Position numbers and translations under genes: made by a program
Notes under the pieces: model-generated
Seen by the model: only the letters and a program-made list of their open reading frames with translations
The model's database searches: none
Told to the model about the DNA's origin: nothing
Part shown: positions 128 through 42,800 of the stretch, one piece after another
How the letters are laid out: the number at the start of each line of letters is the position of its first letter
How positions within the stretch are numbered: position 1 is the stretch's first letter
Virus record (IMG/VR): IMGVR_UViG_3300020138_000003
Location: 1 to 43,058 of that record
Origin: a virus
Direction: 5' to 3' (one strand)
DNA length: 43,058 nucleotides

Positions 128-1023
128 AGCGAAGCAACCAACGGCAAGCCGACGCTTAGGCCAGCCTGAATAATCGGAGCACTGTTGATCTGCTGTTCAG
201 CCGTAGCGTCAGGTGCCCCCAGCTTATCAAACACAGTCTGATAATCGGTGTCCTCATCGTCCGTAAGCTCTCTAATCCCTTGATCGATAGCCAAGCCAAC
301 ACCAAGGTTGGTTGCCAGCTTCGGAACAGTTGGTCCAATCAGGAACGGAGTGACAGCTTCGGCAACGGCAGGGACACCCTTGAGCTTGCCAGGCCCAGGC
401 AGAGGGATTAGGCTCCCAGCAATAGCAGCGGCGCTTTCCTCAATGTTCCGAGGATCACCGACGCCAAGGGAAGCGTTGATCTTGCGCTGACGATCTACGC
501 TGTAATTCAGTGCATCCTCAGCCCCAATATCCACACCGGGGATAAGCTCGACGCCCGACCCGACAAGGCCGTACAACGCAGGCCCGAATGTAGTCGGATC
601 AGCCGTACCGATCAACGCACCACCAGTCTGCGCCGCCATCCTTCCCGTAACATACGCAGCGGTTTTCGGATCAGTGACGTTCGTAAGGAAGTCGCGGCTG
701 TCAACCAGCGCACGCATTTCCTTCTCTTCCTTGCCCTTGGTGCTGTTGGGCCGATCGGTTAGGTACTTATCAAGCTCAGCATCGTCCAGCGTTCTTGGAT
801 CAACAGGATCGAGCGTAGCCAAAAGCTCATCTACATTCTGCAAGTCCAAAGGATCATCCGGCGTTACAACACTTGTAACACCGGACTGATCCCGCTCTAC
901 TCTGCTGCCCTTCCTGCGCCTGATCTCCAGTAGCAGGTCCAGATCATCAAGCTTCTCAAGCTCGTCATCGGGCTTATCGCCACCAAGGGACTTGTACTCA
1001 TCGATCAGGTCCTTATTCGCCAC
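1..1023 (-). CDS. 5' part (341 codons) of a wrap-around protein of about 1386 aa, a large internal-virion/ejection-type protein; continues at 42931..39794
   Basis: My translation stays open from GTG at 1023 to base 1. GGAGG sits 5 nt upstream of that GTG, which overlaps the end of ORF 1013..1864. The frame is in phase with MTKALWTATKPQ of track ORF 39794..43042. The function call rests on size and position only. Confidence 0.8.
   Translation of the reverse strand, partial: MANKDLIDEYKSLGGDKPDDELEKLDDLDLLLEIRRRKGSRVERDQSGVTSVVTPDDPLDLQNVDELLATLDPVDPRTLDDAELDKYLTDRPNSTKGKEEKEMRALVDSRDFLTNVTDPKTAAYVTGRMAAQTGGALIGTADPTTFGPALYGLVGSGVELIPGVDIGAEDALNYSVDRQRKINASLGVGDPRNIEESAAAIAGSLIPLPGPGKLKGVPAVAEAVTPFLIGPTVPKLATNLGVGLAIDQGIRELTDDEDTDYQTVFDKLGAPDATAEQQINSAPIIQAGLSVGLPLVASLPIVAPMTKALWTATKPQTPKIVEINAIDPSGPKNLASIETTA
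864..878. repeat. iterated palindrome TTACAACACTTGTAA (0 mismatches)
   Basis: Inside the giant gene, read as VTSVVT. The flanks extend the dyad (CCGG..CCGG). Confidence 0.95.
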
Positions 1024-1864
1024 CGCCGCCTCCCCGACCGGTTGTCATCGCCTTGGCTGCAAGCTGAGCAGCCTCGGCGCGGGTTTTGTCCGCACTCATC
1101 ATCGCTTGGATCAGAGCCGTCAAGCCCTGTGTAGTCGATGTATCGAACGTATTAGCCAAACCGCTCGGGCTGTATCCACTCCGACCGTCCTGACCAGCCA
1201 AACCACTGAGCATAGAAAGTTCGTTCTGCGCTCGATTGTTCCTAGCACCCTCGAACGTGGCAAAGTCTTGCATACCCTGCCGTTTCGCAGCACTGGTAAC
1301 ACCGTCAAATGCGCCTTCGCTCAGTCCTCGGAAGGCACTAGCAAAATCAGCAGCATTATTACCACCGCCAGCGCGTAGGGCCTGACGAGATACAAGTTCA
1401 CCAACACGATCTAGCCCCTGCTGTCGATCCTGCACCGCCGAACGCTGAGCATCGGCAATGAAGTCCTGCTCGCTGCGCTTCGGAGCATAGCGATAGTTGT
1501 TGAACGCCTGCTCGAAGGCATCGTTGGCCTGAATAGATCGCTGATCCTGCCGTTCAAGAGCCGCCCTGTTCCTAGGAGCATCCTCCCTAGCAGCGAGCAA
1601 CTGCTCGACTTGCTCAGCATCGAGGATCGCCTGTGACGTGGGCGTCTTCTCAGTAAACCAACCACGCACAGGATCGTACTTAGTAACGTTCCCGTACGCA
1701 TCAGTCCTCGGGGCCGTGATCAGCGACTGCTGCTGCCGAGACGAGGACAAGCTGTCCAACACGCTCGCCAACAGGATCGACTGAGGATCGACACGACCAT
1801 CCCTACCCCTTGCTAGGGTATCGGCAAAAGCCTGTTCAAGCAAGTCCTCGAAATCTACAGCCAT
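1013..1864 (-). CDS. hypothetical virion-module protein, 283 aa
   Basis: Track ORF in the late arm, tightly packed with its neighbours. No domain recognised. Confidence 0.65.
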   Translation of the reverse strand: MAVDFEDLLEQAFADTLARGRDGRVDPQSILLASVLDSLSSSRQQQSLITAPRTDAYGNVTKYDPVRGWFTEKTPTSQAILDAEQVEQLLAAREDAPRNRAALERQDQRSIQANDAFEQAFNNYRYAPKRSEQDFIADAQRSAVQDRQQGLDRVGELVSRQALRAGGGNNAADFASAFRGLSEGAFDGVTSAAKRQGMQDFATFEGARNNRAQNELSMLSGLAGQDGRSGYSPSGLANTFDTSTTQGLTALIQAMMSADKTRAEAAQLAAKAMTTGRGGGGGE

Positions 1865-2260: not shown

Positions 2261-2977
2261 TTACTTCCTTTCCTCACCGAGGACCTGCTGAAGGACCCGA
2301 TTGGAAGTCTGGTCTTTCTCAGCTTCATCATCGAATGATTTGATCCGATTGATTTCGGTGATCATCGAAGCGCGATCCATCGAGCCAGTATAGTGCCCAT
2401 CAGAAAGCATTTCGAGATAGCCACGAAGCTGGCGATCAGACATGTTTCCCAAGTCGTCCGTTACAACACTTGTAGCAGGAGCCGCCTGCTTCTGTTGCAT
2501 GACATCCCCGAGCACCTTGGCCCGGATAGCATCAGTCGATCCCGACGCGACGTTTGGGCCATTGCCAACAGGATCAGCACGTAGCGTGTCATCACGATTA
2601 TTGATGATGCTCTGCCCAGCCCTGTTCCCTCGGTGGGCGGCGTCCCAATACCCAAGCTCGTCCTCACCTTCCGCAGGCCAGTCACGAGTATCGTTAAACG
2701 GATCGCCCGGAGCCTCTTCCTGTATCTGCAAAGCCGCGGCTGCGACCATCATCATTTCACCATCCGAAGCCGGATCGAGAATGCCTGTCGCACGCTTGGC
2801 TTCTTCATAGGCAGCAGGATCAATGCGATCCATGACGTTGCCGAACCTGTTGCTCAGCGGATGCGGAAGCGCGTTGGCAACTCTGTTGGTCGACCGATTG
2901 CTGCTGATCGCACCACCGACAAGACCTGTATCGCCTCTCAGAGCAGCGAGAAGATCATCCTGAAAACCGTCAGCCAT
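2261..2977 (-). CDS. hypothetical virion-module protein, 238 aa
   Basis: Track ORF with 2-3 nt gaps to its neighbours. Confidence 0.65.
   Translation of the reverse strand: MADGFQDDLLAALRGDTGLVGGAISSNRSTNRVANALPHPLSNRFGNVMDRIDPAAYEEAKRATGILDPASDGEMMMVAAAALQIQEEAPGDPFNDTRDWPAEGEDELGYWDAAHRGNRAGQSIINNRDDTLRADPVGNGPNVASGSTDAIRAKVLGDVMQQKQAAPATSVVTDDLGNMSDRQLRGYLEMLSDGHYTGSMDRASMITEINRIKSFDDEAEKDQTSNRVLQQVLGEERK
2461..2475. repeat. iterated palindrome TTACAACACTTGTAG (1 mismatch)
   Basis: Inside 2261..2977, read as ATSVVT. Confidence 0.9.
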
Positions 2978-2980: not shown

Positions 2981-3292
2981 TTACTGCTCCACTCGATCGT
3001 AGTGCGTGCCAACAACGATCCCTGTCGGCTGCTTGTTCTTGTCAGCGAACTGCAAGGTGTTCGTAGCCACGCTGTCCTTGGCAAACGGGTTGTAAATCCG
3101 CGCATAGAACGAGGGGTTCTCGAACAAAATCTGCGCCGTGTCGTCATCGATGATGAATACGTTTTCATGCTCATCGATCACAGCAATTCGATGTCCCTCA
3201 TCGTTACAAAAGTTGTAATCGACCTCAATCGAAGTCTCGACATCGTCATCGACCCCAGGACCGACTTCCTTAACCACAGGCTTCCTAGCCAT
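2981..3292 (-). CDS. hypothetical protein, 103 aa
   Basis: Track ORF in operon context. Confidence 0.6.
   Translation of the reverse strand: MARKPVVKEVGPGVDDDVETSIEVDYNFCNDEGHRIAVIDEHENVFIIDDDTAQILFENPSFYARIYNPFAKDSVATNTLQFADKNKQPTGIVVGTHYDRVEQ
3204..3218. repeat. iterated palindrome TTACAAAAGTTGTAA (0 mismatches)
   Basis: Inside 2981..3292, read as YNFCN. This is the only Y-N-x-C-N frame case. Confidence 0.95.
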
Positions 3293-4213: not shown

Positions 4214-4668
4214 TGCTCGATCTCCATGCAGAAATTGGTTCCGATCTGTGTAAAGCCAAAGCGTTTGGCGAGCATGGCAAACTTCTCAACCTTGTAACCG
4301 CTCGACTGTGACCATCGGATTTCTCTTACACACCGTTCCTTGGCCCATTTCACATAAGCCGTTACAAGTGTTGTAATCGCCTTTAGGCTCCGATGCTGCG
4401 GGATGACATAGGTCACCCGGTCGATAGCATAAGCCTCGTAACTGAATGGGAACGACAACGCCTCCGCTGCCATTCCTCCAATGATCTGCCCATGATCTGT
4501 GATCACGTTGCAGAAAAAGTCCTCGTTGTTGATATTGCCCTTGAGCATTCCGATAACCTTCTCAGGAGCATAGCTGATCTTACCGTAATGTGTTTCGGCA
4601 AGACCAGCCTTGAGAAGCTCAACGATCATTGGAATTTCGTACGGGCTGTAACGCCTTGTCTCGATCAT
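4210..4668 (-). CDS. GNAT-like N-acetyltransferase (tentative), 152 aa
   Basis: The ATG at 4668 overlaps the upstream TGA (ATGA). The beta-alpha pattern and the segment VIPQHRSLKAITTLVTAYVKWAKE resemble GNAT motif A. No search was run. Confidence 0.45.
   Translation of the reverse strand: MIETRRYSPYEIPMIVELLKAGLAETHYGKISYAPEKVIGMLKGNINNEDFFCNVITDHGQIIGGMAAEALSFPFSYEAYAIDRVTYVIPQHRSLKAITTLVTAYVKWAKERCVREIRWSQSSGYKVEKFAMLAKRFGFTQIGTNFCMEIEQ
4362..4376. repeat. iterated palindrome TTACAAGTGTTGTAA (0 mismatches)
   Basis: Inside the GNAT-like gene, read as ITTLVT. Confidence 0.95.
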
Positions 4669-5050: not shown

Positions 5051-5065
5051 TTACAACTCTTGTAA
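5051..5065. repeat. iterated palindrome TTACAACTCTTGTAA (0 mismatches)
   Basis: Fills 15 of the 20 nt between the stop at 5069 and the start at 5048. Confidence 0.95.
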
Positions 5066-5614: not shown

Positions 5615-6152
5615 CGATCAAGCGCCCCTGCTTCGCCCAATCACGCCAAGGGTGAAGCTCGAAGTGGCCCCAATCGAGAAAACTCTCATCAGAGGTTTTA
5701 TCGTTCATGTTCCAATCAGCACCCCAACGAATAGGGATTTTGCGCGCTTTGGCAATGGTAAGAAACACCTGCGCAATGGCTTTGAACTTATCCACGTTGT
5801 CGAAATCAATGGGATAGGGGACGATGTCCATGGCAACGGCAGGGATATAGTTATGTGCCGACTGACCAAAGTGTGCCTTAGTGTTACCGAGCTTGAATGC
5901 CTGCTCTTGCTCGGCCCTACCACGTTGTGCATCAAGGATCACGAAGTCGATCTGTTTGATCGCCTCATCAACGATCAATTGCAGGTTCGGATGTAGTTCC
6001 TTTCGTGCATCCAAGCTGCGTTTGGAGAACTTGAACCCCGTTACAACAGTTGTAGTTAGTCCAAGATCAAGCTCAGGCTCGGTTTCCTCAACCACTTCTT
6101 GTCTCCGTTTGTAGAAAATCCAGCCGAACAAGTTACATCCACGGTTCACCAC
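5607..6152 (-). CDS. M15-family zinc peptidase (endolysin candidate), 181 aa
   Basis: The pattern SAHNYIPAVAMDIVP ... DWGHFEL fits the H-x6-D ... H metal ligands of VanY/M15 peptidases. Confidence 0.75.
   Translation of the reverse strand: MVNRGCNLFGWIFYKRRQEVVEETEPELDLGLTTTVVTGFKFSKRSLDARKELHPNLQLIVDEAIKQIDFVILDAQRGRAEQEQAFKLGNTKAHFGQSAHNYIPAVAMDIVPYPIDFDNVDKFKAIAQVFLTIAKARKIPIRWGADWNMNDKTSDESFLDWGHFELHPWRDWAKQGRLIDE
6041..6055. repeat. iterated palindrome TTACAACAGTTGTAG (1 mismatch)
   Basis: Inside the M15 peptidase gene, read as TTTVVT. Confidence 0.9.
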
Positions 6153-7788: not shown

Positions 7789-9260
7789 TGCAGCGCCTTA
7801 AAGACATAGGTTGAAACGCCATTAATCCTTCTGATCGACATAATGAATTTGTGCCCATTCGTCGTTGTAAGTTCATCGCCAGTGTTCGTACCGACAGTAA
7901 ATCCGGACAACGTCAACGCTCCGGCAGAAGCGCCATTCGTCATAAGCAAATCGATGGCACAGTCTTGTGTCGGAGCAGTAATCGTGAGCGCGCTGTTTCT
8001 TGTGCCGTATTGATACGACGACTTTGTATGATCAAGGGTAAAACTCGTCATAGTTCCAAGCGAAGCAGTAACAATGGCAGAACCCCCGCTCCGTGCAACT
8101 GCCGCTGTTTGCGTCGCCGTCAAATTTTGTGGTGCCCCTGTTCCTGCTCCCACCGCGCGGCCTTTGATCTGCGCCTGCGCCATGTCAGCAAGTTTAGCAT
8201 TGCCGACGTAACCATCAGGGACTGTTCCAAAGCGTGCATCATCACCAGCAGCAACTGTCCCTTCCGTTGTGCCCACATTTAGTGTAGCAGCACCACCGAG
8301 GTCCTCAGGTTGCACTGCGGTGCTTGCCAGTACCCCCTCCGCAGCAGTAGCAAAGTCACTTACTTTCTTTCCACTGTCCTTGATGATCTTACCAGTCGTA
8401 CCTGAGAACAGCACAATCCTATCATTGACCGAAGTGATCGGGCCTTGGACATCACCAACGCCCTCAGCTGGAACGCCAGGCAATCCACTGATGCTGATGT
8501 ACCAATTCGAGATCGTGCCTGTGCCCTTGATCGCAGCGACGTCAATGGTAAGCTCACCAGTCGCAGGATCATAGGCCGTGATCGGACCATAAAGCTGGTT
8601 ATCGGTAGGATTGGCAGCATCCCTCGCCACCACCCAATCTCCGGGACGCCACGACTTGCCGATCTCGGTTTGGAAATTCAGGACTGCTTGTTCAATATCG
8701 TGCTCTGTCGTGCTCGTCCCAGAGTACGTAGCGGCAAGCATGGCCAATTCAGCACGATCAGCATCTGCATCGACCTGTGCTACAACACTTGTAATGTCGA
8801 AGATCGGGAACCAGAACCCTTGGCTCAGATCAGCCAACAAATCATCGCTGGACTGGTGCGGAACAAGACAACCAAGGATTAGTGCCCCACCCATTGCATA
8901 GACGAGGTCGTTAGTGAAATATGCAGTCTGTGGCAGCCAAAAACCGCGAGGCAGCAATCCCTGTGACACTACGCGCCAACGCTCAGGGTGAGCAGCAATC
9001 TCTTCTGAGAATGTGCCAGTGCTTGGGCTCGTGTGCTCAATCAGGCAGCGCCACAAGCTGCCCGTCGCTGTATTGACGACACGATCCTCAACCCTATACA
9101 ACGTGTTGTGTGCCCAGATGCCTCTGATGTTCGAAAACACACCAAGCGACCGCAATGTTGCATCAATGATGGTCATATTGTCGTTAACATCATCGTGCCA
9201 TGTCGCGGCATTAAAGTTCGGACGAGACAAACGCAGGGTCGGTGTTGGATTTGTGGTCAT
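7785..9260 (-). CDS. tail fibre/tailspike candidate, 491 aa
   Basis: Called from size, position after the tail-tube-like genes, and Gly/Thr/Ala-rich repetitive segments. Confidence 0.45.
   Translation of the reverse strand: MTTNPTPTLRLSRPNFNAATWHDDVNDNMTIIDATLRSLGVFSNIRGIWAHNTLYRVEDRVVNTATGSLWRCLIEHTSPSTGTFSEEIAAHPERWRVVSQGLLPRGFWLPQTAYFTNDLVYAMGGALILGCLVPHQSSDDLLADLSQGFWFPIFDITSVVAQVDADADRAELAMLAATYSGTSTTEHDIEQAVLNFQTEIGKSWRPGDWVVARDAANPTDNQLYGPITAYDPATGELTIDVAAIKGTGTISNWYISISGLPGVPAEGVGDVQGPITSVNDRIVLFSGTTGKIIKDSGKKVSDFATAAEGVLASTAVQPEDLGGAATLNVGTTEGTVAAGDDARFGTVPDGYVGNAKLADMAQAQIKGRAVGAGTGAPQNLTATQTAAVARSGGSAIVTASLGTMTSFTLDHTKSSYQYGTRNSALTITAPTQDCAIDLLMTNGASAGALTLSGFTVGTNTGDELTTTNGHKFIMSIRRINGVSTYVFKALQ
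8780..8794. repeat. iterated palindrome CTACAACACTTGTAA (1 mismatch)
   Basis: Inside the fibre gene, read as ITSVVA. Confidence 0.9.
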
Positions 9261-11083
9261 CTGAAATACGTCCCGATGTAGTAGATGATGGTAAGTGTTG
9301 CGATGTTGAGAGGTTTATTGGAAGAACCGGACAGCCTGAGCTTCAAAATTTTGAAGTCAGCTGGGTTCTTCCAAGGACGCTCATCTTTCGTACGCCTACC
9401 GCCACCATACGGTTGATCTTGATTACCATAACCTTGGCTATCTCCACCAACGAAATCGAACGATGTCGCCGGATCGAAGTTGCCGTCACGGTCTAGGTAA
9501 TAGTTATCCACGAATGCCTGTAGTGTAAACTGTGCTGTACCGCCAGTATCGATCTGGATATAGGACAGCCGCTTCTTACGGGCGCGCATCCCAAGACTTG
9601 TCCAAGGAAGCTCCCAAGCGAAGTTGATATACTGACCATCAGTGATGTCGAGAAGCCTCCCCGCAGCCTCATCATTCTCGATTGTGTTGGATACATGACT
9701 GATAAGAGCACGGTAAATTTTGTCGCTGTCTGGGTCTTTGAGAATTTGCCCAGCTGTTACAGGGACAGCTTGCTCCCAGACACTGTCGTACTCACCGACT
9801 TTGTCTCCGGTGTACCTCTCATTATCAAAGACGTCGTTGCCGTACTGATAGACTTTAGTTCCTTCGCCAAGGAACACTCTGCCACGAGCCGTGCCACAGC
9901 CACAGGTTGGCTTAAGCCCAAGAATGCGAGAGAACGCTGGGGTTTTGAACGTCTTGCGAAGAACCGATGCTGTCCAACCGATCGTCTCACCCTGCTCATC
10001 GATTACAAAAGTTGTAATGCGCCGTTCGAGCTTGTTGTAGACCGAGAATGCCTTAGCGCGATCCATGCTCTCAAGGCTGACCGAGCCAGCAAACTTCGGG
10101 TCCAACGGTTGGCTGATACCAAACGTCTCAACAAGTCCAAACGTGTTCTTACGAGCCAGATGCCAGCCGGTAGTGTCCGCCATGACAAGATCACGCTCAG
10201 CAGTGATCATCGTCCGATAGTTGATAACACCATGCTCTACGATGTTGTCTTGCACGACTGGCTTGTGAACATCGTTGTCGTCATATTGCCCAAGCTCAAC
10301 CGTGACGATCGAGCCTTCGAATGCAACAATTAGGCTGTTCCTATACGACGCAAGTCCGATGATCTCATTCGTATTCTCAGGCACAAAGCTGCTAAGATTA
10401 TACGAAATGCTATCATTGGGCGGATCATCACCGGGCCAAACGCCGGACGTGCCAGAGCTAGAGATATAGATCGAGCCAAGGGCGGCACTGATCCCAGCCA
10501 TGACGAGATAGTTGCCACAGGTCGTGACGTACCTGCCAATTGGCGTGTTCACGTTCGAGCCAGTTGCTGGATCATCGAGATACTTGACTGAGAACCCAGC
10601 AGATATAATCAGGGGCTTGTCTTGGCCGTTGACGACAACGAGGTCGCCCTTGAACTCTGATGTATCAATGTAAAACTGGCCGGCAGACCAACCATCGGGG
10701 GTTCCGGGAAGCAGCCCAGCAATCGTGCTGTTCCAGATCGCGGTCGGCGTGCCGCTGTTGTCAATCCGTGCGATCTCACCACCGTCAGTAAACGCCAACA
10801 GCGCGCCGTTGAAGTACACGATCTCCAGCAACTGGCCTGTTACAACGTTTGTAACGTCACAGAACAGTTTCGTGCCCCAACGAATGGACAAGGTGCCATC
10901 GTTGTCCTGAACGACATTATCCAGAACCTTGGCAAACTTGCTATTCAGTGTAAGATCGTTGGCTGTTAAATCCAGCCCACCATCGAACCCCGTAATCGAA
11001 ACGTCTCGAAGCTGAACAGACTGCTTCGGAGGCTTAATTCGGGGAAATAAGGACAGTGCTGCCATCGCGATAACCTGCTCCAT
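9257..11083 (-). CDS. tail tubular/nozzle-type protein candidate, 608 aa
   Basis: Synteny only. It is a large ORF after the head module and an adaptor-sized ORF. Confidence 0.4.
   Translation of the reverse strand: MEQVIAMAALSLFPRIKPPKQSVQLRDVSITGFDGGLDLTANDLTLNSKFAKVLDNVVQDNDGTLSIRWGTKLFCDVTNVVTGQLLEIVYFNGALLAFTDGGEIARIDNSGTPTAIWNSTIAGLLPGTPDGWSAGQFYIDTSEFKGDLVVVNGQDKPLIISAGFSVKYLDDPATGSNVNTPIGRYVTTCGNYLVMAGISAALGSIYISSSGTSGVWPGDDPPNDSISYNLSSFVPENTNEIIGLASYRNSLIVAFEGSIVTVELGQYDDNDVHKPVVQDNIVEHGVINYRTMITAERDLVMADTTGWHLARKNTFGLVETFGISQPLDPKFAGSVSLESMDRAKAFSVYNKLERRITTFVIDEQGETIGWTASVLRKTFKTPAFSRILGLKPTCGCGTARGRVFLGEGTKVYQYGNDVFDNERYTGDKVGEYDSVWEQAVPVTAGQILKDPDSDKIYRALISHVSNTIENDEAAGRLLDITDGQYINFAWELPWTSLGMRARKKRLSYIQIDTGGTAQFTLQAFVDNYYLDRDGNFDPATSFDFVGGDSQGYGNQDQPYGGGRRTKDERPWKNPADFKILKLRLSGSSNKPLNIATLTIIYYIGTYFR
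10003..10017. repeat. iterated palindrome TTACAAAAGTTGTAA (0 mismatches)
   Basis: Inside 9257..11083, read as ITTFVI. Confidence 0.95.
10840..10854. repeat. iterated palindrome TTACAACGTTTGTAA (0 mismatches)
   Basis: Inside 9257..11083, read as VTNVVT. Confidence 0.95.
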
Positions 11084-11725: not shown

Positions 11726-11740
11726 TTACAACTCTTGTAA
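11726..11740. repeat. iterated palindrome TTACAACTCTTGTAA (0 mismatches)
   Basis: Intergenic, 2 nt upstream of the start at 11723. Confidence 0.95.
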
Positions 11741-12936: not shown

Positions 12937-12951
12937 TTACAACCCTTGTAA
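12937..12951. repeat. iterated palindrome TTACAACCCTTGTAA (0 mismatches)
   Basis: Intergenic, 2 nt upstream of the start at 12934. The spacer reads GGG on the coding strand. Confidence 0.95.
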
Positions 12952-19377: not shown

Positions 19378-19379
19378 CG

Positions 19380-19394: not shown

Positions 19395-19401
19395 TGGGGG
19401 A

Positions 19402-19425: not shown

Positions 19426-19435
19426 CTAGGTAAAA

Positions 19436-33064: not shown

Positions 33065-33621
33065 TGCCAACCAAATCTAAAGTTGCTGGGCCGGCTAAGC
33101 CTAAGTCGGCCAGTAAGGGTAAAGGGACTGCGCCCAAAGACAGCCCCGCTACAACTGTTGTAACCAAACCAACCAAAGGTAACGCTACCATGTCTGACCA
33201 GGTCACGATCATCGATCTCGATATGAACCTCGAAGATTTCGAGGATTATGAGATTTTGCCCGATGGTCCTCTCCCCGGTGAATGCACCATTGCCGAGGTC
33301 CGCACTTCGGACAATGGCAACCAGTATTTCTACACCATGTGGCGGATCGATCCTTCCGATTATCCGCTCGACTACGATCGGGAGAACGCCCCGAACGGAA
33401 CCATCATGAACTATTCGCGTGTTCAGGTTCCGACCCCCGGCGATCGTCGCTCGATCACTTCGGTCAAGAAGTTCATGGCTGCGATGGGCCTGAGCCTCAA
33501 GACCAACTCGATCGATTGCTCGCAGTGGGTTGGCAAGCGCGCCATGCTCAACATTGGGCATCAGGTCTACAACGGTGAGAACCGGAACCAGATCGTGTCG
33601 GTTGAGAACGAGGACGCCTAA
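33064..33621 (+). CDS. DUF669-like putative ssDNA-binding protein (tentative), 185 aa
   Basis: Lies next to the AAA_24 ATPase. Basic low-complexity N-terminus followed by a globular domain. Confidence 0.4.
   Translation: MPTKSKVAGPAKPKSASKGKGTAPKDSPATTVVTKPTKGNATMSDQVTIIDLDMNLEDFEDYEILPDGPLPGECTIAEVRTSDNGNQYFYTMWRIDPSDYPLDYDRENAPNGTIMNYSRVQVPTPGDRRSITSVKKFMAAMGLSLKTNSIDCSQWVGKRAMLNIGHQVYNGENRNQIVSVENEDA
33149..33163. repeat. iterated palindrome CTACAACTGTTGTAA (1 mismatch)
   Basis: Inside 33064..33621, read as ATTVVT. Confidence 0.9.
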
Positions 33622-33740: not shown

Positions 33741-33770
33741 GAGGGGGAGATTAATTTCTCCCCCTCTTAT
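33741..33770 (+). terminator. intrinsic terminator GAGGGGGAGA-ttaatt-TCTCCCCCTC-TTATT
   Basis: 10-bp GC-rich stem, confirmed against the ORF-track frame. Confidence 0.65.
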
Positions 33771-33784
33771 TACAACTCTTATAA
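33770..33784. repeat. iterated palindrome TTACAACTCTTATAA (1 mismatch)
   Basis: Intergenic, directly after the terminator 33741..33770 and upstream of the helicase. Confidence 0.9.
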
Positions 33785-33803: not shown

Positions 33804-35027
33804 ATGTCGTTCTCCAACGCTACCCAAGATCAACAGCTAGCAATCGATCTAAGCCTCGACACGGCTAATCGACTTGTTGGCATCACTGGGGCAGCAGGCA
33901 CAGGCAAAACCACCGTTCTCGGTGAAGCAATATCCGAAGCCAAAGATGCTGGATACTCAGTCGCAGTCGCTGCCCCGACTGGCCGTGCCGCCGCTCGGAT
34001 CAAAGAAAAGTCTGGGCATTATGCTCAGACAGTCCATCGCTTGCTTGGCTATGGTGCCCCTGATCCCAATGACCCCAATGATATGCCCATCCCTAAGCGT
34101 GGGCGTAGTAATCCTATCCCTGCCGACTTCATCTTCATTGATGAAGCCTCGATGCTTAGTGATGAACTGCACCGCAATCTTGTTCAAGCTGTTCGCCCCG
34201 GTGCCGTCCTGCGCTACTTCGGGGACATGAACCAACTCCCGCCTGTCGAAGGAACCAGCAAGTTCCAGATGGTGCTCGACAAGTTCCCGTCAGTTACACT
34301 ACAGCACAACTTTCGTTCAGGCGACGGGATCATTCAGGCCAGCCAATCCATACTCAAGGGCCTGCTTCCCGTCACCAACGATCAGGTTTCGATCCTCAAC
34401 ATTGGTTCGCGCCTTGGGCTCACCACGCTCAGCGAGTTCATTGATGAAGAGTTTCTTACTGACCAAGCGCAGATCATCTTGCCCACGCGCGTCGGTCAGC
34501 TTGGTACAAATCTTGTAAACAGGTACATCCAACAGAAGCTCAACACCAATCCTCGGCATCTTGATCTGGTCTATGAAGCCAAAGGTCAGGACCCTGAGCA
34601 GAAGTTGCGCCTACGTCCCGGCGACAAGATCATCTGGACCAAGAACGATTACAATCTCAACCTGTTCAATGGCATGATCGGTCGCGTCGTCAACTTCGAT
34701 GAGTTCGAGGGCTCGATTGTGCTTGAGTTCTATGGGCAGGACAAGGTTATTCCTACAGTCCTCGAACGCTACGATGCACAGAACGATAGGAAAATCTTCC
34801 GGTATGATCCGCGGCGCTACATCGATCTGGCCTACGCAATCACGACGCACAAGTCTCAGGGCTCAGAGTTCCAGCGCGTATTAATGCTGCTCTATCGCAC
34901 TCGTGTCGCATCGCGCCAGAACTTCTATACAGCAATCACTCGTGCTCGTAAGCACGTTACCGTCATCGCTGGCCCCGGTGGCCTTCGATCAGCCATGCAA
35001 CTTCAACGTCAGTCACAGGAGGAATAG
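33804..35027 (+). CDS. SF1 DNA helicase, RecD/Dda-like, 407 aa
   Basis: Motifs ITGAAGTGKTT, FIDEASML, GDMNQLPPV, AITTHKSQGSEF and YTAITRARKHV. Confidence 0.9.
   Translation: MSFSNATQDQQLAIDLSLDTANRLVGITGAAGTGKTTVLGEAISEAKDAGYSVAVAAPTGRAAARIKEKSGHYAQTVHRLLGYGAPDPNDPNDMPIPKRGRSNPIPADFIFIDEASMLSDELHRNLVQAVRPGAVLRYFGDMNQLPPVEGTSKFQMVLDKFPSVTLQHNFRSGDGIIQASQSILKGLLPVTNDQVSILNIGSRLGLTTLSEFIDEEFLTDQAQIILPTRVGQLGTNLVNRYIQQKLNTNPRHLDLVYEAKGQDPEQKLRLRPGDKIIWTKNDYNLNLFNGMIGRVVNFDEFEGSIVLEFYGQDKVIPTVLERYDAQNDRKIFRYDPRRYIDLAYAITTHKSQGSEFQRVLMLLYRTRVASRQNFYTAITRARKHVTVIAGPGGLRSAMQLQRQSQEE
34504..34518. repeat. iterated palindrome GTACAAATCTTGTAA (1 mismatch)
   Basis: Inside the helicase gene, read as GTNLVN. 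Confidence 0.9.
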
Positions 35028-35367: not shown

Positions 35368-35789
35368 TCTACCGCAAATCCAACCATCGGTTTCCAAAGA
35401 AGGCCCCACTTGCCAAGCGTATCTTTGTCTATGGCTCGTCCCTTACTGGTTCGGTCAAGACAGGCTTGGCACACGATGCCTACATGCACCACGGCGCAAC
35501 TGCCGGACATAAGGCCGGTATCAGTGGACAGGCATATGCCATCCCTGTCCGTGACCATAACGATAAGCTCTTGACCTTGATACAGATTGATCTTTGGGTC
35601 AGTCGGTTCTTGGTCTTTGCAGCTGAACATCGAGAGCTACAGTTCGATGTCACGGCTGTCGGTTGCGCCCCCAACGAGTACACGGCACAGCAGATTGCAC
35701 CGTTCTTCCAAGTCCGAACCACCAACATCAGGCTACCGAAATCATTCATCAACGTCCTGATCAACCCAACCCCATTACAAGAGTTGTAA
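35364..35789 (+). CDS. conserved-looking hypothetical protein, 141 aa
   Basis: ATGA overlap upstream. The motif FVYGSSLTG...GISGQAYAIPV is reminiscent of Rossmann/SLOG-like phage proteins, which is very tentative. The stop codon is supplied by a palindrome copy. Confidence 0.55.
   Translation: MIYRKSNHRFPKKAPLAKRIFVYGSSLTGSVKTGLAHDAYMHHGATAGHKAGISGQAYAIPVRDHNDKLLTLIQIDLWVSRFLVFAAEHRELQFDVTAVGCAPNEYTAQQIAPFFQVRTTNIRLPKSFINVLINPTPLQEL
35775..35789. repeat. iterated palindrome TTACAAGAGTTGTAA (0 mismatches)
   Basis: Read as L-Q-E-L-stop. Its TAA is the stop of 35364..35789, and the next ATG follows 1 nt later. Confidence 0.95.
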
Positions 35790-35991: not shown

Positions 35992-38488
35992 TCTAAAGCT
36001 CCACAAGAAGGAAATGCTCAATCGTTGTATTGAGCTTGATCTTGAACCACAGGTTCTGTGCGATGGCAGGCTCGACGCTGAGCTTGTCATCGTTGCCGAA
36101 GCTCCCGGTGGAACAGAAGTTGCACAGAAGCTCCCACTCGTTGGGAGTTCTGGTGCATTGATCTGGAACATCCTACGCCAGAACAACATCCTCCGTCCGA
36201 ACTTCTACATCACCAATGTCTGTAAGCGACAGATCAGCCTCAGCAGTGAGAAGCGTGCTGCTGTCCCTGCTGATGAATGGACACGGTGGCGCACGCTGTT
36301 TGATTGGGAAATGCGGCAGCTTACGGGTCCCAAGGTAATCCTTGCTATGGGCAACGTGGCTATCGAAGCTCTGCTCGGTGTCACTGGCATCAACAAGTTC
36401 CGTGGCTCAGTCTATGATCTGAACCTCAACGGACATGATGTTAAAGTCATGTGTACCTACAATGCTGCGGCAGTTCTTCGGCAGCCCAAGGATGAAATCA
36501 TTCTGCATTTTGACATCCGGCGGTTTGCTCAGCTTGCTCAGGGCGATTGGAAAGAGTGGCCAGTCACCACGCGCTACGATCTCAGCTTCGATGAAACCCT
36601 TGCCGAGATCGCACGGTTCAAAGCCGAGAACAAAGACACAGCCGTTGACATCGAGTGGACCTCGGGGCGCTTGGCCTGTGTCGGCTTGGCCAACGATGTT
36701 CATCATGCTGTTTGTATCAATTTCCGTGACAGGCTTTCCAATCGCTTTACGACCGAGCAGGAAATCCAAATCATGTTCGCGTTACAAGACTTGTATCAAA
36801 GTCTCGCAGCATCAGGCCACATGATCGGACAGAACAGTTCGTTCGATAGTCATGCTTCTGGCATCTTCGATCACATTGATATGCCGATGAACTATGACAC
36901 GTTGCTTGCTCACCATACACTCTATCCAACCCTACCGCACAACCTCGGTTTCCTCACCAGCATGTACACGACCATGCCGTACTACAAGGACGAGGGCTCC
37001 GAGTGGAAGGAAGATGGTGATGTCACTACGCTCTGGGAGTATAACGGTAAGGACGCCTGCGCAACCCTAGCCGCTAAGATCGGCACTGAGCAAGAGCTAA
37101 AACAGCAAGGGCTCTATGACTTCTTCATCAACCATGTCATGCACTTGCAGCCGCACCTAATCCAATCGACCATTCATGGGATCAGAGTTGATCAGGCTAT
37201 CAAGCGCAAGATCGCAACCGAACTCTCAACCGAAGTCGAGGAAAAGAAGCTCAAGTTCCAGCACTGCGCAAGGATTGCTACTGGCTTACCTGACACATAC
37301 AAGCCCAACCCTGACAGCCCAGCCCAAGTCAAAGACCTGCTCTATACTCGCCTCGGCCTACGGCATCGATCCAATTCCACCGACGCCAATGCTCGGGAAG
37401 ATATGCTCGCCGATCCTCGAACGTCGGCTGCTGCCAAGGAAGTTCTCGTCTCGCTCACCAACTACAAAGCCGATGCGAAGTTCCTGTCAACCTATGCCGA
37501 AAGCCGTGTCGATCCTGACGGCAGGTTCCGCTGCGACTGGAAACAGTACGGCGTTCAGTCAGCACCGGGGCGACTATCTTCATCCAAGACCCTTTGGGGC
37601 ACAGGGATGAACATGCAGAACCAGCCATATCGTGCTCGGCAGTTCTATATTGCTGACGACGATTGTGTGCTGATCTACTTCGACCTTGCGCAGGCTGAGG
37701 CGCGTGTTGTTGGCTACGTCGCCGACATCGACAAGTGGAAGGAAGATTTTGAACGTGCTCGTGTGTCTGGGGATTTCGACTGCCATCGATCCCTTGCCGC
37801 TGACATGTTCAAGATGCCTTACGACGACGTTCCCAAAGACGACCTTGATGAGGATGGCGAGCATACCATCCGTTACATCGCCAAGCGTTGTCGCCACGGC
37901 TTGAACTATCGAATGCAGATTGATCGACTTGCCGAAACAACAGGCTTGTCTTTCTCTCGCGCTGCTCAAGCCTATCATGCCTATCACCGCTTGACCCCAG
38001 AGCTTCAACTCTGGTGGAAGGAGATTGAACACATAGCCAAGCGTGATCGAGAACTGTTCAACGCCTTTGGTCGCAGGATGAAAATCTTGCAGCGCATTGA
38101 CGATGATGCTCTCAAGTCAATCGTTGCGTTCTATCCTCAGTCTACCATTGGGGACAAGGTCTGTGAAGTCTGGTACTCGGCACATGAAGATGATCGATGG
38201 GATAGCCACAAGGCGCGTATTCAGCTTAATGTGCATGATGCTCTCATCGGCATCGCGCACAAGGACTATGCCAAGACTGCTCTGTCGATCATGAAAGCCT
38301 ACGCAGAGAAACCGATCCTGATCGAGAACGTTTACAAGACCAAGCGTGAGCAGCTTATCATTCCTGCTGACTGCGCGATCTCTGCGCTTGAGTTCAAGGA
38401 CAAGAAAGGAAACATCGTCAAGGATACTGTCCATCGCTGGTCGAACTTGCAGAAGCTCAAGCTCGATGCAGCAAGTCTGCCGATCTGA
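35981..38488 (+). CDS. family A DNA polymerase with an N-terminal family-4 UDG-like domain and a 3'-5' exonuclease
   Basis: UDG-like segment VIVAEAPGGTEVAQKLPLVGSSGALIW. Exonuclease motifs VDIEW, QNSSFDS and YNGKD. Polymerase motifs FDLAQAEARV, RYIAKRCRHGLNY and NVHDA. The start is uncertain: GTG at 35981 overlapping the upstream stop, or ATG at 36014. Confidence 0.9.
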   Translation: MQTDLKLHKKEMLNRCIELDLEPQVLCDGRLDAELVIVAEAPGGTEVAQKLPLVGSSGALIWNILRQNNILRPNFYITNVCKRQISLSSEKRAAVPADEWTRWRTLFDWEMRQLTGPKVILAMGNVAIEALLGVTGINKFRGSVYDLNLNGHDVKVMCTYNAAAVLRQPKDEIILHFDIRRFAQLAQGDWKEWPVTTRYDLSFDETLAEIARFKAENKDTAVDIEWTSGRLACVGLANDVHHAVCINFRDRLSNRFTTEQEIQIMFALQDLYQSLAASGHMIGQNSSFDSHASGIFDHIDMPMNYDTLLAHHTLYPTLPHNLGFLTSMYTTMPYYKDEGSEWKEDGDVTTLWEYNGKDACATLAAKIGTEQELKQQGLYDFFINHVMHLQPHLIQSTIHGIRVDQAIKRKIATELSTEVEEKKLKFQHCARIATGLPDTYKPNPDSPAQVKDLLYTRLGLRHRSNSTDANAREDMLADPRTSAAAKEVLVSLTNYKADAKFLSTYAESRVDPDGRFRCDWKQYGVQSAPGRLSSSKTLWGTGMNMQNQPYRARQFYIADDDCVLIYFDLAQAEARVVGYVADIDKWKEDFERARVSGDFDCHRSLAADMFKMPYDDVPKDDLDEDGEHTIRYIAKRCRHGLNYRMQIDRLAETTGLSFSRAAQAYHAYHRLTPELQLWWKEIEHIAKRDRELFNAFGRRMKILQRIDDDALKSIVAFYPQSTIGDKVCEVWYSAHEDDRWDSHKARIQLNVHDALIGIAHKDYAKTALSIMKAYAEKPILIENVYKTKREQLIIPADCAISALEFKDKKGNIVKDTVHRWSNLQKLKLDAASLPI
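36782..36796. repeat. iterated palindrome TTACAAGACTTGTAT (1 mismatch)
   Basis: Inside the polymerase gene in the stop-containing frame, read as LQDLY. TAA is changed to TAT. Confidence 0.9.
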
Positions 38489-38503
38489 TTACAACACTTG
38501 TAA
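38489..38503. repeat. iterated palindrome TTACAACACTTGTAA (0 mismatches)
   Basis: Starts right after the polymerase stop. Its 3' end overlaps the AAAGGAA RBS of the mazG-like gene. Confidence 0.95.
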
Positions 38504-39534: not shown

Positions 39535-39861
39535 ATGGCCTTCTCTCTGCGCTACGCTGAACTTGTTCGTAGGCTTCTGCTTGCTGCTGGTACCAACGGC
39601 ATCGGTCAGCGTGATCTACACCAGCGTTCTCGTACTCCAAAGTACAACATCGATGACCTGCTCATGTTGCTTCATGCTTGGCAACGCCGCAATTGGGTCG
39701 ATCATTACAAGATTGGAGCTAAGCATTACTGGCGCGCGACACAGCTTTTGCATGACCAGTGGTTCATCGTTACAAGTGTTGTATCAGACGTGCTCACTGC
39801 GGACCTCCCGCCATCGGCGCTAAGTCCTTCGCAAAATCAAACCGACGACCCGGAGGCATGA
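39535..39861 (+). CDS. winged-helix-like DNA-binding protein candidate, 108 aa
   Basis: GGAGA lies 5 nt upstream of the ATG at 39535. HTH-plus-wing pattern GIGQRDLHQRSRT ... VDHYKIGAKHYWRAT. The 3' end overlaps the convergent giant gene by 68 nt. Confidence 0.45.
   Translation: MAFSLRYAELVRRLLLAAGTNGIGQRDLHQRSRTPKYNIDDLLMLLHAWQRRNWVDHYKIGAKHYWRATQLLHDQWFIVTSVVSDVLTADLPPSALSPSQNQTDDPEA
39770..39784. repeat. iterated palindrome TTACAAGTGTTGTAT (1 mismatch)
   Basis: Inside the winged-helix candidate gene, read as VTSVVS. Confidence 0.9.
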
Positions 39862-42800
39862 CCCCGGCCGCAACAAGTTGATCAGTCACGTCATCTTCGA
39901 TCTGCCTGATCTGTGCAAGCTGTTGTTCCATTGTCGCATGGCGCTCAGTTTCGAGCAAGTTGATCAGACGCTCGACATCGAACCTGTCAGTCAGGTCAAT
40001 GTCGTTGTCTTTCAACAACTGTCTTGTCTTAATCATTTGCTCGTATTGCCACTCAGTAGCTTTCGCGCTCTCAAGAGCACTTTTCGCTGCCAGCCCGGCC
40101 TCCGTCTGTGTTTTTTCTCCACGCGGAATAGCGTCATACGCTTCTTGGGCAACAGCTGTCTCCCCCTTAGCCTGTTCGTAATCGTCCACAGCACTGTCCA
40201 GTTTCTGCTCGAACTCTATATAATCCCTCTTGCGTCCAGCGTTATATCCCTTGAGCAGGTTGATTTGTTCAGTCAGCGTACCCTGCCGCGCACGGATGTT
40301 CCCCATACCATACGCGCTGTTGCTCTCCATCGAGTTCCAGATATATTCGCCCATCGCCGCATATACTGGATTGGTCGGCCTCGGGGTAGTTGGGGGCGCG
40401 ACATAGCCAATCGGCGCATCCATTGTCACACCAGCCGGACCAGCAGGGAAGTCTTGCGTTGACCGCACTACTCCGCCCCGACGATAGTGCAGGTCGTACT
40501 CATCCTTGAACTTATAATAGGCATCAAGCTTCATCCGCTGCTCTTGAGCAATCGGTGTAAAGTACGTAGCCTTACGCTTTAGCCCAGCAACGCCCTTGAG
40601 TACCGGAACCCTGGCCAGCACGTCCTCGCTAAATTCCTCAGCCGCCGCACCCGGTCCCCCCTCGCCAAAGGCATAGGCGGCATCGAGGGCATAAGCACTC
40701 GCAGCACCGAACAGTTCACGGATCGTCATTTCGACGTTCTGCGGCAGATAACCAACGTTATCCTCGGTGATGTTGTAGGCATTCCCACCGATCTCAGGCG
40801 GATTAATACCAAGCATAGCAAGCCCAGCATTGGCCAGTGGAGGCATACTGATTGGGCTCATGTTCTGCAACAAGGTCATACCGAACTGGTCAGCAGCAGC
40901 TTTCGTATGCTCGTCGCTCGATGACAAGTGTTGTAACATCTGCTGATATGGTGCAGCAAACAGCACCTGCTCATGTGCAATCGGAATGCTGATCCCCTGC
41001 TCGGGAGGCAGCCCAGGAATACCGATGTAAATCGGCTCCATGATCTGATCACGCATCGAACGCTGCTCGAACTGGTACTTGTTGTAATCATGCCCATCGG
41101 GGTTCTGCTCGCTTAGCATATTATTCCATGCCATTGATACAACACTTGGCAAGCCGACCGTCATCCATGACCGAAGCGCGAACCGTACCGGATCATCCGC
41201 AGCCGCACCAAATGCTCTGCGCACGCCCTGTATCGATGGGTTAAAATACGGCACAGAAAGCCGAACAGCCTCAGACGCACCACCGATTATTGCATCTAGT
41301 GGCACGAACGTGGGGTTCGCAGCATCTGCGGTGATCAAACGCCCTCGACTATCAAAGGCTCGGCCAGACCTGTTCGTATCACCAGTAATCCTTCGAGCAC
41401 TACCCGCAGCTTTGGCGGGATCGATCCCCGCCTTGACTGAACGCTTGAATGCCGAGTATCTCGGAGCTTCCTGCAAGCTATCGAACAGCGCACCGAAGCC
41501 CTTGATAGCTGCCCCAGCACTCACGCCCCACGATCTGCCAAGCCAAGGGTAACGCTCATTCAACTCTCGACCGATCTCATGGAACGCACCAGTCGCAACC
41601 TCCATTCGAGTACGCATGATCGAGGCGTCGTAACCACCCTGCTCTTTGGCCATCGTGTAGATCGTATTCTGCAACGAATTGGCAGCACGCTGCACGAATT
41701 GCTGAGCCGCCCCCTGTTCCATGAACGGGATCATCTGCTTCCCAGCCAGTAACCTTGCCTCAGCCGCACGAACGAAAGCCTCGGTAGCCTTAGCACTGAG
41801 GATTTCAGCCGGTGCGGTAAGCACACCAAGAATGCTGGGGCCTTTCTCACCCTTGCCGACGTTCGCAGCGCCTGCGAGTGTATCGCGGATCATTGTTGTC
41901 GGAGCAAACGTGATCGAAGCAACACCAGTCGTACCCTTTTCGAACCACCTACGGGCCGTGACGATGCTACTCCCAAGTACGCCGCGAACAGCGTAGGGAT
42001 CAAACTGTGCAATCTGCGCCTGCAACTGGCCTGTGATGTAATTCGTGGTCTTGCCCTGCCTTACAACACTTATAATGCGCGTCGGATACTTCCGAACTTC
42101 ATCCGCCGTAGCCTTCCTGATCAATGGTGATTTCTTGCCCTTGATCCTCGCAGCCTGAACATCAGATGAGAGCAAGCTATCAACGTAGTTCGCCCTCGTA
42201 TTGTTCTGCAACTGCTGATTGAGCACGCCGCGCGTATACTCGATCATCGTCTCCATCGAGTGCCGACGATCGTTGACTGCCTTGTTCCCAAGATAGTCTT
42301 TGCGCCCGAACCAAGCCTGCTCATCAACTGGGGCACGATTGTTCCTTGCAGCCTGATTGATCCTAGTCAGCAGCGGGTCGCCGGGATTGATACTCGTCGG
42401 GCTGCTCGGGACAAAGTGCTTTCTGCTCATCGCAAGGCTTTGTCCCTGATTACGCCCAATCAGTGCATTCGGCCCCTGCTGCAAGAAGTCCCTGCTTGCA
42501 TCCATCACACCCTGATAAGCTTTGCTGAACTCGGCAAGCTGCGGGTACTTGGCACGCAAGTCAGCGCGTTGTTTCTGAACAGTGCTGAGCTTTCGTTTGG
42601 CCCCCTTTGGTCCCTTCGGATTGTTTGCTTGCAATCTTAGGTCGTCGGCAAAGTCACCGAGCTTGAGATACAGATCGTATTCGCGCTGAACTTCGGGCGG
42701 AAGCTGATAGAAGCTATCATACAGCACTCGCGGAGCGACAGGCGCGTTGAAGTCTCCGAACTGCCCACGAAGCTTGCCGGAGTTCAGAGCTTCGTTGGTT

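Follow-up and report, generated by a model that had tools for sequence, protein, structure and literature searches.

Short DNA sites that recur along a replicon have been described in several systems. The stoperators of Cluster A phages are asymmetric sites of 13-14 bp, oriented with transcription; most of them lie between genes, and the phages that carry them are temperate and have a known repressor. The OB sites of KorB on plasmid RK2 are 13-bp palindromes (TTTAGC-S-GCTAAA), a dozen or more per replicon, read by a dimer that spreads or slides, while HIP1 of cyanobacteria is an uninterrupted 8-mer of cellular genomes, linked to methyltransferases, whose function is debated. The closest published case is the 17-bp repeat TGTTCGG-N3-CCGAACA of the Cluster O mycobacteriophages (Corndog and relatives), which has a 7-3-7 layout and 34 copies in 70 kb, one third of them in genes; its authors suggested a dimeric DNA-binding protein of unknown function and contrasted the repeat with stoperators and start-associated sequences (PMC4351075). 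DNA uptake sequences are genome-wide motifs that sit in preferred reading frames, are placed where proteins tolerate them and inflate the peptides that they encode (Findlay and Redfield 2009, PMC2817400). Here, we describe an array of 45 copies of the palindrome TTACAANNNTTGTAA (TTACAA-N3-TTGTAA) in a 43,058-nucleotide stretch of viral DNA (IMG/VR virus record IMGVR_UViG_3300020138_000003, positions 1 to 43,058; hereafter the window), and argue that it is probably a binding-site array for a symmetric protein encoded by the phage itself.

The array resembles the Cluster O repeat in its 7-bp arms, its 3-bp spacer and its more than 30 copies, which lie in and between genes and are not tied to promoters, and in both cases the motif was not found in other phages. 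However, the sequence and the phage family are unrelated, so that the relation is one of analogy and not of homology. The Cluster O repeat occurs about once per 2 kb and is concentrated at one genome end, whereas the present array is even, with 1-2 sites per kb and 58% of them in genes; no frame rule, codon cost or lineage-specific motif switching was reported for Cluster O. A literature search by motif sequence returned no matching paper. What seems to be new here is that the sites are evenly spaced and lie mostly in genes, that their coding cost can be measured, that a gene takes its stop codon from the motif's TAA, and that the motif switches across the family.

The other systems are more distant. 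Stoperators, which are tens of repressor binding sites genome-wide in addition to the operator at the early promoter, share with the array this number of sites and a motif that co-evolves with the phage lineage, but the site here is palindromic, and no integrase, ParA/B or repressor family was detected. Uptake sequences are likewise a DNA-level motif in preferred reading frames; they differ in being asymmetric, in belonging to competent bacteria with the uptake machinery as reader, and in using preferred codons where the array uses the rarest. The sites of KorB, ParB and Noc are odd-centred dispersed palindromes too, some of them inside genes or far from promoters, but their density is much lower and they need a ParB-family protein, of which there is none (ParBc/HTH) among the Pfam matches of the called proteins. 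HIP1 is comparable as a very abundant palindrome in and outside genes with a biased reading frame; a HIP1 array or a cyanobacterial host was considered and set aside, as GCGATCGC occurs once in the window.

Extent, spacing and placement of the palindrome

The window holds 20 exact copies of the 15-mer and 45 with at most one mismatch, where dinucleotide-preserving shuffles give 0.00 and 0.07, respectively. The wider definition of a copy is used throughout, and 25 of the 45 carry a mismatch. The first copy lies at position 864 and the last ends at 42075. The real unit is of 17 bp, R-TTACAA-SWS-TTGTAA-Y, with R at position 0 in 41 of the 45 copies and Y at position 16 in 42, end positions that are kept in intergenic copies too, and with S-W-S as the spacer. 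Since the alignment of the 45 copies carries no information outside these 17 bp, the unit is a 7-3-7 dyad with no promoter-like element attached. A promoter and terminator scan gave matches that were not above shuffles and had no link to the sites; no T-run stands beside the palindromes, and the terminator scan flagged one copy only. On the + strand the spacer is CxC in 20 copies and GxG in 7, which is only marginally above base composition, and its orientation is inconsistent with gene direction.

The copies are spaced evenly. The coefficient of variation (CV) of the gaps is 0.48, compared with 0.97 +/- 0.13 for random placement, and none of 20,000 simulations was as low; nine relatives are even as well (CV 0.41-0.68, P <= 0.015). 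They also prefer intergenic DNA, for non-coding DNA makes up 10.3% of the genome and holds 19 of the 45, the other 26 (58%) being in genes. Sixteen intergenic gaps measure 20 bp or more; 12 of them contain a site, and seven sites lie in the control region. Coding copies are not biased to gene ends, with 8 observed and 7.6 expected within 100 nt. In two gaps of exactly 20 bp, 5049-5068 and 12935-12954, 2 nt precede and 3 nt follow the 15-mer, and in both the motif spacer (GAG or GGG) is the only Shine-Dalgarno-like sequence before the downstream ATG; these gaps look sized to hold the palindrome. The free spacer doubles as a ribosome-binding site, because where gaps are tight only 1-2 nt separate the motif from the ATG and the spacer is GAG, or GGAG in L003 and L005, which are among the relatives L002-L005 (contigs of 43-46 kb reached through portal homologues).

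It is the whole palindrome that is the functional unit, since isolated half-sites occur at chance frequency (TTACAA 10 against 8.9 expected, TTGTAA 7 against 7.8). The two halves vary independently of each other. Mirrored variable positions do not covary in any of five genomes (all P > 0.08 for a Watson-Crick excess), and in L004 positions 6 and 10 show A..C as often as G..T. This is not the behaviour of a selected hairpin and argues for a two-fold symmetric reader of duplex DNA.

Reading frames and their cost to proteins

An earlier, sequence-only reading of this DNA had counted 27 coding copies and divided them 22, 1 and 4 among the frames. Genes were here called from two public assemblies of the same phage, with manual curation of the poorly coding stretch 19378-23332; greedy calling of the longest open reading frames (ORFs) had been misled by long antisense ORFs and was dropped for these calls. 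With the curated genes the count is 26, divided 21, 1 and 4, the gap being one or two copies for which the control-region ORFs are doubtful. The prevailing frame (21 of 26) is xTT-ACA-Axx-xTT-GTA-Axx; a single copy, at 3204, is read as xxT-TAC-AAx-xxT-TGT-AAx (the Y..C frame), and four are read as TTA-CAA-NNN-TTG-TAx. Site 25 looks at first like a second copy in the Y..C frame and is counted as non-coding, since it lies in an extension of a long GTG-started ORF that is not credible as protein upstream of MPEEID. The same preference is found in nine relatives, within the structural block, where 117 copies read x-T-x-x-V, 5 LQxLY and 3 Y..C.

The peptides that the earlier reading had named are all present: VTSVVT and ATTVVT, twice each, and ITTLVT, TTTVVT, VTNVVT, VTRVVT, ITSLVV and VTTLIT. 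Its three copies with an altered TAA are also as described (TAC in TerL, TAT in PolA, TCA in the giant gene), and gene 35364-35789 ends on the TAA of the intact stop-frame copy at 35775. The restriction of the changes to the TAA is in part made by the search, which through an open frame and at most one mismatch permits a difference only there; the informative point in the stop-containing frame is that near-copies exist at all.

The motif is costly at the level of codons. Outside the motifs, GTA accounts for 8.7% of Val codons, ACA for 17% of Thr and TTA for 1.9% of Leu, each the rarest for its amino acid, and 20 of the genome's 83 GTA codons sit in motif copies. When codons were redrawn synonymously with all proteins kept, 0.41 coding copies per genome resulted, against the 26 observed, and the redraw favoured the Y..C frame, so that codon usage alone does not produce the distribution of frames. 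Nor is the peptide retained by homologues for reasons of the protein, as it tracks the DNA variant at window site 4362: five genomes, each with its own variant of the motif, read ITTLVT, ITSLVT, ITGLVA, ATELVD and ATELVE there. The rare codons, the redraw and these orthologues together support the earlier proposal that the DNA motif is kept against protein-coding constraint and imposes a Thr/Val-rich peptide on unrelated proteins. Neither of the two outcomes that the earlier reading had named as refuting it was obtained. At the site in the 39535-39861 protein, the window reads IVTSVVSD and a homologue of 49% identity reads VVPHLIHE. Site 10840 is a case of pre-adaptation, its homologues having VSSVVD in motif-free DNA. 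A further expectation, that sites fall in variable loops, is weakly borne out: conservation of the flanks is 0.39 and the protein mean 0.43, and in an AlphaFold (AF2) model of the portal protein (predicted local distance difference test, pLDDT, 71.6) one site falls in a loop that is disordered and rich in indels, and the other where a strand ends.

The 17-mer spells [IV]-T-[RST]-[LV]-V-[IMT] in the used frame and [..]-Y-[KN]-[CST]-C-N in the second, and contains a stop in the third. The positions of the window's proteome that need at most two amino-acid changes number 20 for the used frame and 4 for the Y..C frame, and those at low BLOSUM cost 24 and 2. A bias is therefore expected, because the used frame has more positions that need few changes; its direction is a by-product, the used frame costing the protein least.

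Lineage-specific palindromes and genome organisation

The relative nearest by portal (L002, 59% identity) has the same motif as the window, while L003, L004 and L005 (37-49%) carry CTACAG-N3-CTGTAG; the core TACA-N5-TGTA is shared across these relatives at 1.1-2 copies per kb. Among the site positions in aligned structural proteins, 33 of 44 are unique to one genome and several others are common to two or three. Sites turn over while density is kept, so that it is density that is selected and not position. The earlier proposal predicts such turnover, and an origin in the proteins would predict the opposite.

Scans of IMG/VR with single proteins gave no relatives, and an alignment-based scan gave 537 portal relatives. 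Nearly all clades have their own dispersed palindrome of 13-17 bp with the same odd-centred geometry, including GTGTGA-S-TCACAC, TGTGTG-N-CACACA, GTTTGA-N-TCAAAC, GTATGA, CTTTA-N3-TAAAG and GATTA-N3-TAATC. The type of motif follows the portal tree, and the density of the array differs ten-fold among clades, from 0.2 to 2 per kb. Such lineage-specific codes would be expected of a recognition protein that evolves with its sites. The clades with TGTGA-N-TCACA and TTTGA-N-TCAAA, palindromes without such an asymmetry of cost, place copies in either open frame (24:14 and 11:11) and never in the stop frame (0 of 60). Single genomes among the IMG/VR relatives L053 and L056-L061 mix half-site variants, for example GTGTGA-S-TCAAAC beside homodimeric GTTTGA and GTGTGA sites; judged from these sites, this looks like a reader that tolerates either base at one position, and like a switch of specificity in progress. 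In a related, motif-poor clade, with IMGVR_UViG_3300005294_000055 and 3300009148_000021 among its members, 20 kb contain only 3-5 copies of TTATACA-S-TGTATAR (or GTATA-N5-TATAC), most of them between genes. It may represent an ancestral state with few operators, and its sites suggest that the array expanded from such an ordinary state.

The window is the whole genome of an uncultured tailed phage. It is a complete circular assembly, with a unit of 42,931 bp, because its first and last 127 bases are identical (42932..43058 repeats 1-127, an assembly overlap) and public assemblies of the same sequence have 42,961-43,072 bp. A megablast of 25 kb gave no nucleotide match to cultured phages, and TerL and PolA are only about 25% identical to those of the nearest cultured phages, none of which is a Cluster O phage. 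The only match in the bacterial genome collection (L007, CAZEZI010000018.1) is a 26-kb contig binned in a metagenome-assembled genome of Thioalkalispiraceae. Its portal is 30% identical, and it lacks a palindrome array. This contig, which could be either a prophage or phage DNA binned in error, is the only hint of a host.

The genome map (Table 1) was built from the gene calls of the two public assemblies, family searches and curation. A late and an early block diverge from a stretch without credible ORFs that is probably a control or origin region; the relatives have an equivalent region with 4-6 sites. Its AT-rich elements, at 19872-19955 and 20311-20343, comprise two copies of AAAACAAAGAATAAATCTTA, four tandem AATCTT units within a 26-nt inverted repeat and two adjoining copies of TATAGTAT(T/A)ATATATA, and could be an origin-unwinding element or strong promoters. 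Farther along, a 604-bp gap contains both a terminator-like hairpin with an 18-bp stem (26335-26374) and, downstream of it, the best sigma-70-like promoter match of the region (26679-26707, TTGCCA-17-TATAAT, 11/12), with a copy of the palindrome on each side; it is probably an operon boundary inside the early block.

Several observations stand apart from the array. On the + strand, an open frame of 821 aa (12973-15438) overlaps the genes for capsid, scaffold and portal in antisense and exceeds these real genes in length. The DNA polymerase (35981-38488) fuses a uracil-DNA-glycosylase (UDG)-like domain, a 3'-5' exonuclease and a family A polymerase; family searches recognised no primase among the genome's proteins, and tRNA and Rfam scans of the genome gave no matches. 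GC skew is negative in nearly every 2-kb window, in the - and + gene blocks alike (+ strand C 28.1%, G 24.6%), and is not explained by the direction of transcription; replication may be one-directional. There are 414 copies of GATC, where base composition predicts about 166, and TCGATC, GATCGA and CTGATC are among the most over-represented hexamers in the window; the excess of GATC is also present in L002, L003 and L005, and not in L004.

Table 1. Genome features and palindrome sites of the window, with the copies listed for the motif-poor clade. Sites are numbered along the window, coordinates are those of the 15-mer, and the strand given is that of the gene.
Feature	Position	Strand	Match	Location	Peptide or remark
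Late block	19377 down through position 1 to 39794	-			TerS-like, TerL, P22-type portal, scaffold-like, major capsid protein, tail genes, lysin, acetyltransferase-like, 1386-aa gene
Early block	21717-39861	+			PD-(D/E)XK exonuclease, Sak4-like, RecD/Dda-like helicase, UDG-PolA fusion, MazG-like pyrophosphatase
Control region (probable)	19378..21716			between divergent late (-) and early (+) blocks	2.3 kb without credible ORFs; 7 sites and AT-rich repeats
1386-aa gene	1023..1 then 42931..39794	-		virion block	crosses the window junction
Candidate reader	39535..39861	+		last early gene	108 aa; family in 46/80 helicase-centred loci, all motif clades
Site 1	864..878	-	exact	1386-aa gene	VTSVVT
Site 2	2461..2475	-	1 mismatch	gene 2261-2977	ATSVVT
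Site 3	3204..3218	-	exact	gene 2981-3292	DYNFCN, only Y..C-frame copy; alternative start past motif out of frame
Site 4	4362..4376	-	exact	gene 4210-4725, relatives match Acetyltransf_1	ITTLVT; position common to all 5 genomes
Site 5	5051..5065		exact	20-bp intergenic gap, ends 2 nt before ATG of 4665-5048	spacer GAG in gene orientation (Shine-Dalgarno-like)
Site 6	6041..6055	-	1 mismatch	gene 5607-6152	TTTVVT
Site 7	8780..8794	-	1 mismatch	gene 7785-9260	ITSVVA
Site 8	10003..10017	-	exact	gene 9257-11083	ITTFVI; L002 occupied at same position (ITTFVT)
Site 9	10840..10854	-	exact	gene 9257-11083	VTNVVT; homologues VSSVVD or VSSVVS without DNA motif
Site 10	11726..11740		exact	intergenic, 2 nt before ATG of 11034-11723	
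Site 11	12937..12951		exact	fills 20-bp gap, 2 nt before ATG of 12464-12934	
Site 12	14046..14060	-	exact	gene 13915-15012	VTSVVT; position common to L002, L003
Site 13	14754..14768	-	1 mismatch	gene 13915-15012	DTTVVR; position common to L005
Site 14	15765..15779		1 mismatch	portal gene	NTKVVK, aa 421-426, strand end and next loop (AF2 model)
Site 15	16755..16769		1 mismatch	portal gene	DTKLVT, aa 91-96, low-confidence indel-rich loop; position common to L003
Site 16	17472..17486		1 mismatch	TerL, stop-containing frame	LQQLY (TAA to TAC)
Site 17	18519..18533	-	1 mismatch	C-terminal end of gene 18511-18729	ATTVVT
Site 18	19380..19394		exact	2 nt before ATG of TerS-like gene 18733-19377, control-region edge	
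Site 19	19815..19829		exact	non-coding control region	
Site 20	20180..20194		1 mismatch	control region	
Site 21	20224..20238		exact	control region, 44 bp from site 20	
Site 22	20372..20386		1 mismatch	control region	left half TTACAG
Site 23	20791..20805		1 mismatch	control region	
Site 24	21686..21700		exact	16 nt before start of 21717-22217, first early gene	
Site 25	23032..23046		exact	424-bp non-coding gap 22909-23332	
Site 26	23612..23626		1 mismatch	begins right after stop codon ending 23611	
Site 27	24757..24771		exact	intergenic	
Site 28	25238..25252		exact	intergenic, 20 nt before ATG at 25273	
Site 29	26282..26296		exact	between stop at 26274 and terminator-like stem 26335-26374	
Site 30	26825..26839		1 mismatch	between promoter-like 26679-26707 and gene 26879	
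Site 31	27374..27388	+	1 mismatch	gene 27175-27429	ITTVVS
Site 32	28010..28024	+	1 mismatch	gene 27565-28050 (DUF6197)	VTTLIT
Site 33	29048..29062	+	1 mismatch	gene 28864-29223	TTTLVT
Site 34	29979..29993	+	exact	gene 29753-30076	VTRVVT
Site 35	31097..31111		1 mismatch	PD-(D/E)XK exonuclease gene 30343-31452	ITSLVV
Site 36	31777..31791		1 mismatch	intergenic	
Site 37	33149..33163	+	1 mismatch	gene 33064-33621, family in 79/80 relatives	ATTVVT
Site 38	33770..33784		1 mismatch	intergenic, 19 nt before helicase ATG	
Site 39	34504..34518		1 mismatch	RecD/Dda-like helicase gene	GTNLVN
Site 40	35775..35789		exact	stop-containing frame; next gene starts 1 nt on	LQEL*, TAA is stop of 35364-35789
Site 41	36782..36796		1 mismatch	UDG-PolA gene, stop-containing frame	LQDLY (TAA to TAT)
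Site 42	38489..38503		exact	begins right after PolA stop codon	
Site 43	39770..39784	+	1 mismatch	gene 39535-39861	VTSVVS; homologue P0155 has PHLIHE there
Site 44	40922..40936		1 mismatch	1386-aa gene, stop-containing frame	LQHLS (TAA to TCA)
Site 45	42061..42075		1 mismatch	1386-aa gene	IISVVR
Motif-poor clade copies, L173	5259, 9870, 16034				clade also L065, L169
Motif-poor clade copies, L176	3582, 8184, 14037				

The putative reader and competing explanations

The array itself is a real feature under strong selection at the DNA level. In the explanation that we consider probable, the sites would be duplex DNA binding sites of a dimeric protein with two-fold symmetry, most likely a product of the phage. 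Selection would favour dense and even coverage of the chromosome, with a site roughly every kb, and would not act on exact positions. Intergenic DNA would receive sites first, with the 3-bp spacer doubling as a Shine-Dalgarno sequence, and long genes would be filled next. Within genes, the Thr (ACA)/Val (GTA) frame with its flexible codons would be cheap and hence used, the frame that needs Tyr, Cys and Asn or Lys would almost never be, and the frame with the TAA would be usable only with the TAA changed to a Tyr or Ser codon or doing duty as the stop codon of the gene itself. On this view, the seemingly edited copies and the frame bias would both be by-products of a DNA-level requirement filtered by its cost to proteins.

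A candidate for the reader is the product of 39535-39861. Iterative profile searches among the ORFs of 160 loci from relatives gave, as early proteins found family-wide, the replication core, a 185-aa protein next to Sak4 and a few small proteins, which besides the candidate include the products of 39149-39484, 28557-28871, 28043-28477 and 25273-26274. The 39535-39861 protein has a helix-helix-helix-wing pattern with an invariant WRAT and may be winged-helix-like. Its profile, over helices 1-3, gave sub-threshold matches in the PDB to the RPC6 winged helix (expectation value, E, 0.1), a Z-alpha chimera (0.68) and RPC34 (1.5), and members of its family matched FeoC (E 0.0033), SelB-wing_2 (0.011) and FaeA (0.015) weakly in Pfam; weak as they are, these matches agree with one another. 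Two other proteins were considered as readers. The product of 33064-33621 (185 aa, with a Lys/Pro/Ala-rich N-terminal tail and no family match) is present in 79 of 80 helicase-centred relatives, and its gene always adjoins the Sak4-like and exonuclease genes, a position that points instead to a single-strand DNA-binding protein, which it probably is. The TerS-like protein occurs in the motif-poor clade too, so that its presence or absence is uninformative.

A number of points weigh against a phage-encoded symmetric reader or against parts of this account. Family searches gave no significant DNA-binding domain in any protein of the window; the winged-helix assignment rests on sub-threshold matches (E 0.003-0.7); an AF2 model of the 39535-39861 protein from 2 sequences is unusable (pLDDT 42); and all that ties this protein to the motif is the co-occurrence of its family. 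The reader may also be encoded by the host. Under the cost model the frame bias should be about 5-12:1, weaker than the roughly 35:1 observed (21:1 here and 117:3 in nine relatives), and in the TGTGA clade the Cys-containing frame is the commoner (24 against 14), which the cost argument does not fully cover. Perfect copies can form hairpins of a 7-bp stem and a 3-nt loop, with energies of -3.3 to -5.2 kcal/mol for RNA and -3.4 to -4.3 for DNA. Finally, the purpose of occupancy is conjecture.

The folding of perfect copies is what would be expected if the palindrome acted as a hairpin in single-stranded nucleic acid, on either strand, as a priming or second-strand signal on displaced DNA, an N4-type virion RNA polymerase promoter or a site of RNA processing or binding. 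The early promoters of N4 are hairpins with stems of 5-7 bp and 3-nt loops, a 1386-aa protein without assigned function exists in the virion block, the genome has no recognised primase, its negative GC skew fits one-directional replication and the spacing of about 1 kb is near the length of an Okazaki fragment. We nevertheless hold the hairpin to be unlikely, given the zero covariation at mirrored positions in five genomes with A..C as frequent as G..T, the uncompensated mismatch in 25 of 45 copies, and positions 0 and 16, which are conserved as R and Y yet unpaired. The loop is also not oriented to transcription (template-strand CxC:GxG is 9:2 in the late block and 5:9 in the early block), and no start-site signal flanks it. 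It is improbable as well that the sites are operators of a global repressor, in the manner of Cluster A stoperators, which would silence a carrier or lysogenic state and whose motif differences would be immunity groups. The grouping of seven sites in the divergent control region, the lineage-specific codes and the few, mostly intergenic copies of the motif-poor clade, which resemble ordinary operators, agree with it, and the stoperator analogy was discussed for the Cluster O repeats (PMC4351075). But the sites are symmetric and unoriented, 58% of them lie in genes at a cost to the proteins, repression needs no even spacing, and promoter-like sequences are not attached to the sites; family searches, which divergent proteins could escape, also gave no integrase, partition protein or recognisable repressor.

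The turnover of positions at constant density, which is fast, and the ten-fold range of density among clades could also come from molecular drive, in which the motif spreads with no benefit to the phage, for example by nicking, repair or gene conversion that turns near-matches into matches, as proposed for uptake sequences and HIP1. Frame biases like the present one have been described for uptake sequences accumulated by drive (PMC2817400). Even so, drive is very unlikely to be the explanation, for the even spacing and the near-complete filling of intergenic gaps speak for coverage as what is selected, even the stop-containing frame retains near-copies, and no nuclease or methyltransferase of such specificity was found. 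Hardly credible is an origin of the pattern in the proteins, through selection for a VTTVV-like peptide, or in a signal of the host, for example Chi, an uptake sequence or a site linked to restriction. Homologues that already read V-S-S-V-V at site 10840 would suit the former, but 19 copies are non-coding, the synonymous redraw leaves 0.41 copies where 26 are observed, and orthologous peptides change with the motif variant, so that the protein version is already contradicted. Isolated half-sites are not enriched, which speaks against a Chi-like signal, and restriction-related sites are normally avoided and not enriched.

If the sites are bound by a symmetric phage protein, as we think probable, their role could tentatively be a chromosome-wide marking by which one phage protein loads along the whole molecule, for compaction, protection or the choice of DNA for packaging; a stoperator-like global control of transcription is a more doubtful role. 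A wider picture, which we offer as speculation, is that this large and so far undescribed family of ~43-kb phages labels its chromosome with a lineage 'bar code'. A small phage protein, possibly the 39535-39861 product, would read a palindrome of 13-17 bp that selection keeps every 0.5-1 kb even where proteins must change their sequence for it, its occupancy would mark phage DNA as distinct from that of the host and of related phages (for protection, compaction or packaging), and the code would drift and switch in the way of immunity or incompatibility groups.

Dispersed phage palindromes have been noticed before, in Cluster O in 2015, and never explained. The array described here accounts for spurious ORFs with YNxCN or LQxL-stop and for some 20-bp intergenic gaps, and it provides a clean viral example of a DNA-level signal that shapes protein sequence. 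With a strong and measurable requirement, even spacing and a motif that switches over hundreds of metagenomic genomes, the reader should be findable by covariation.

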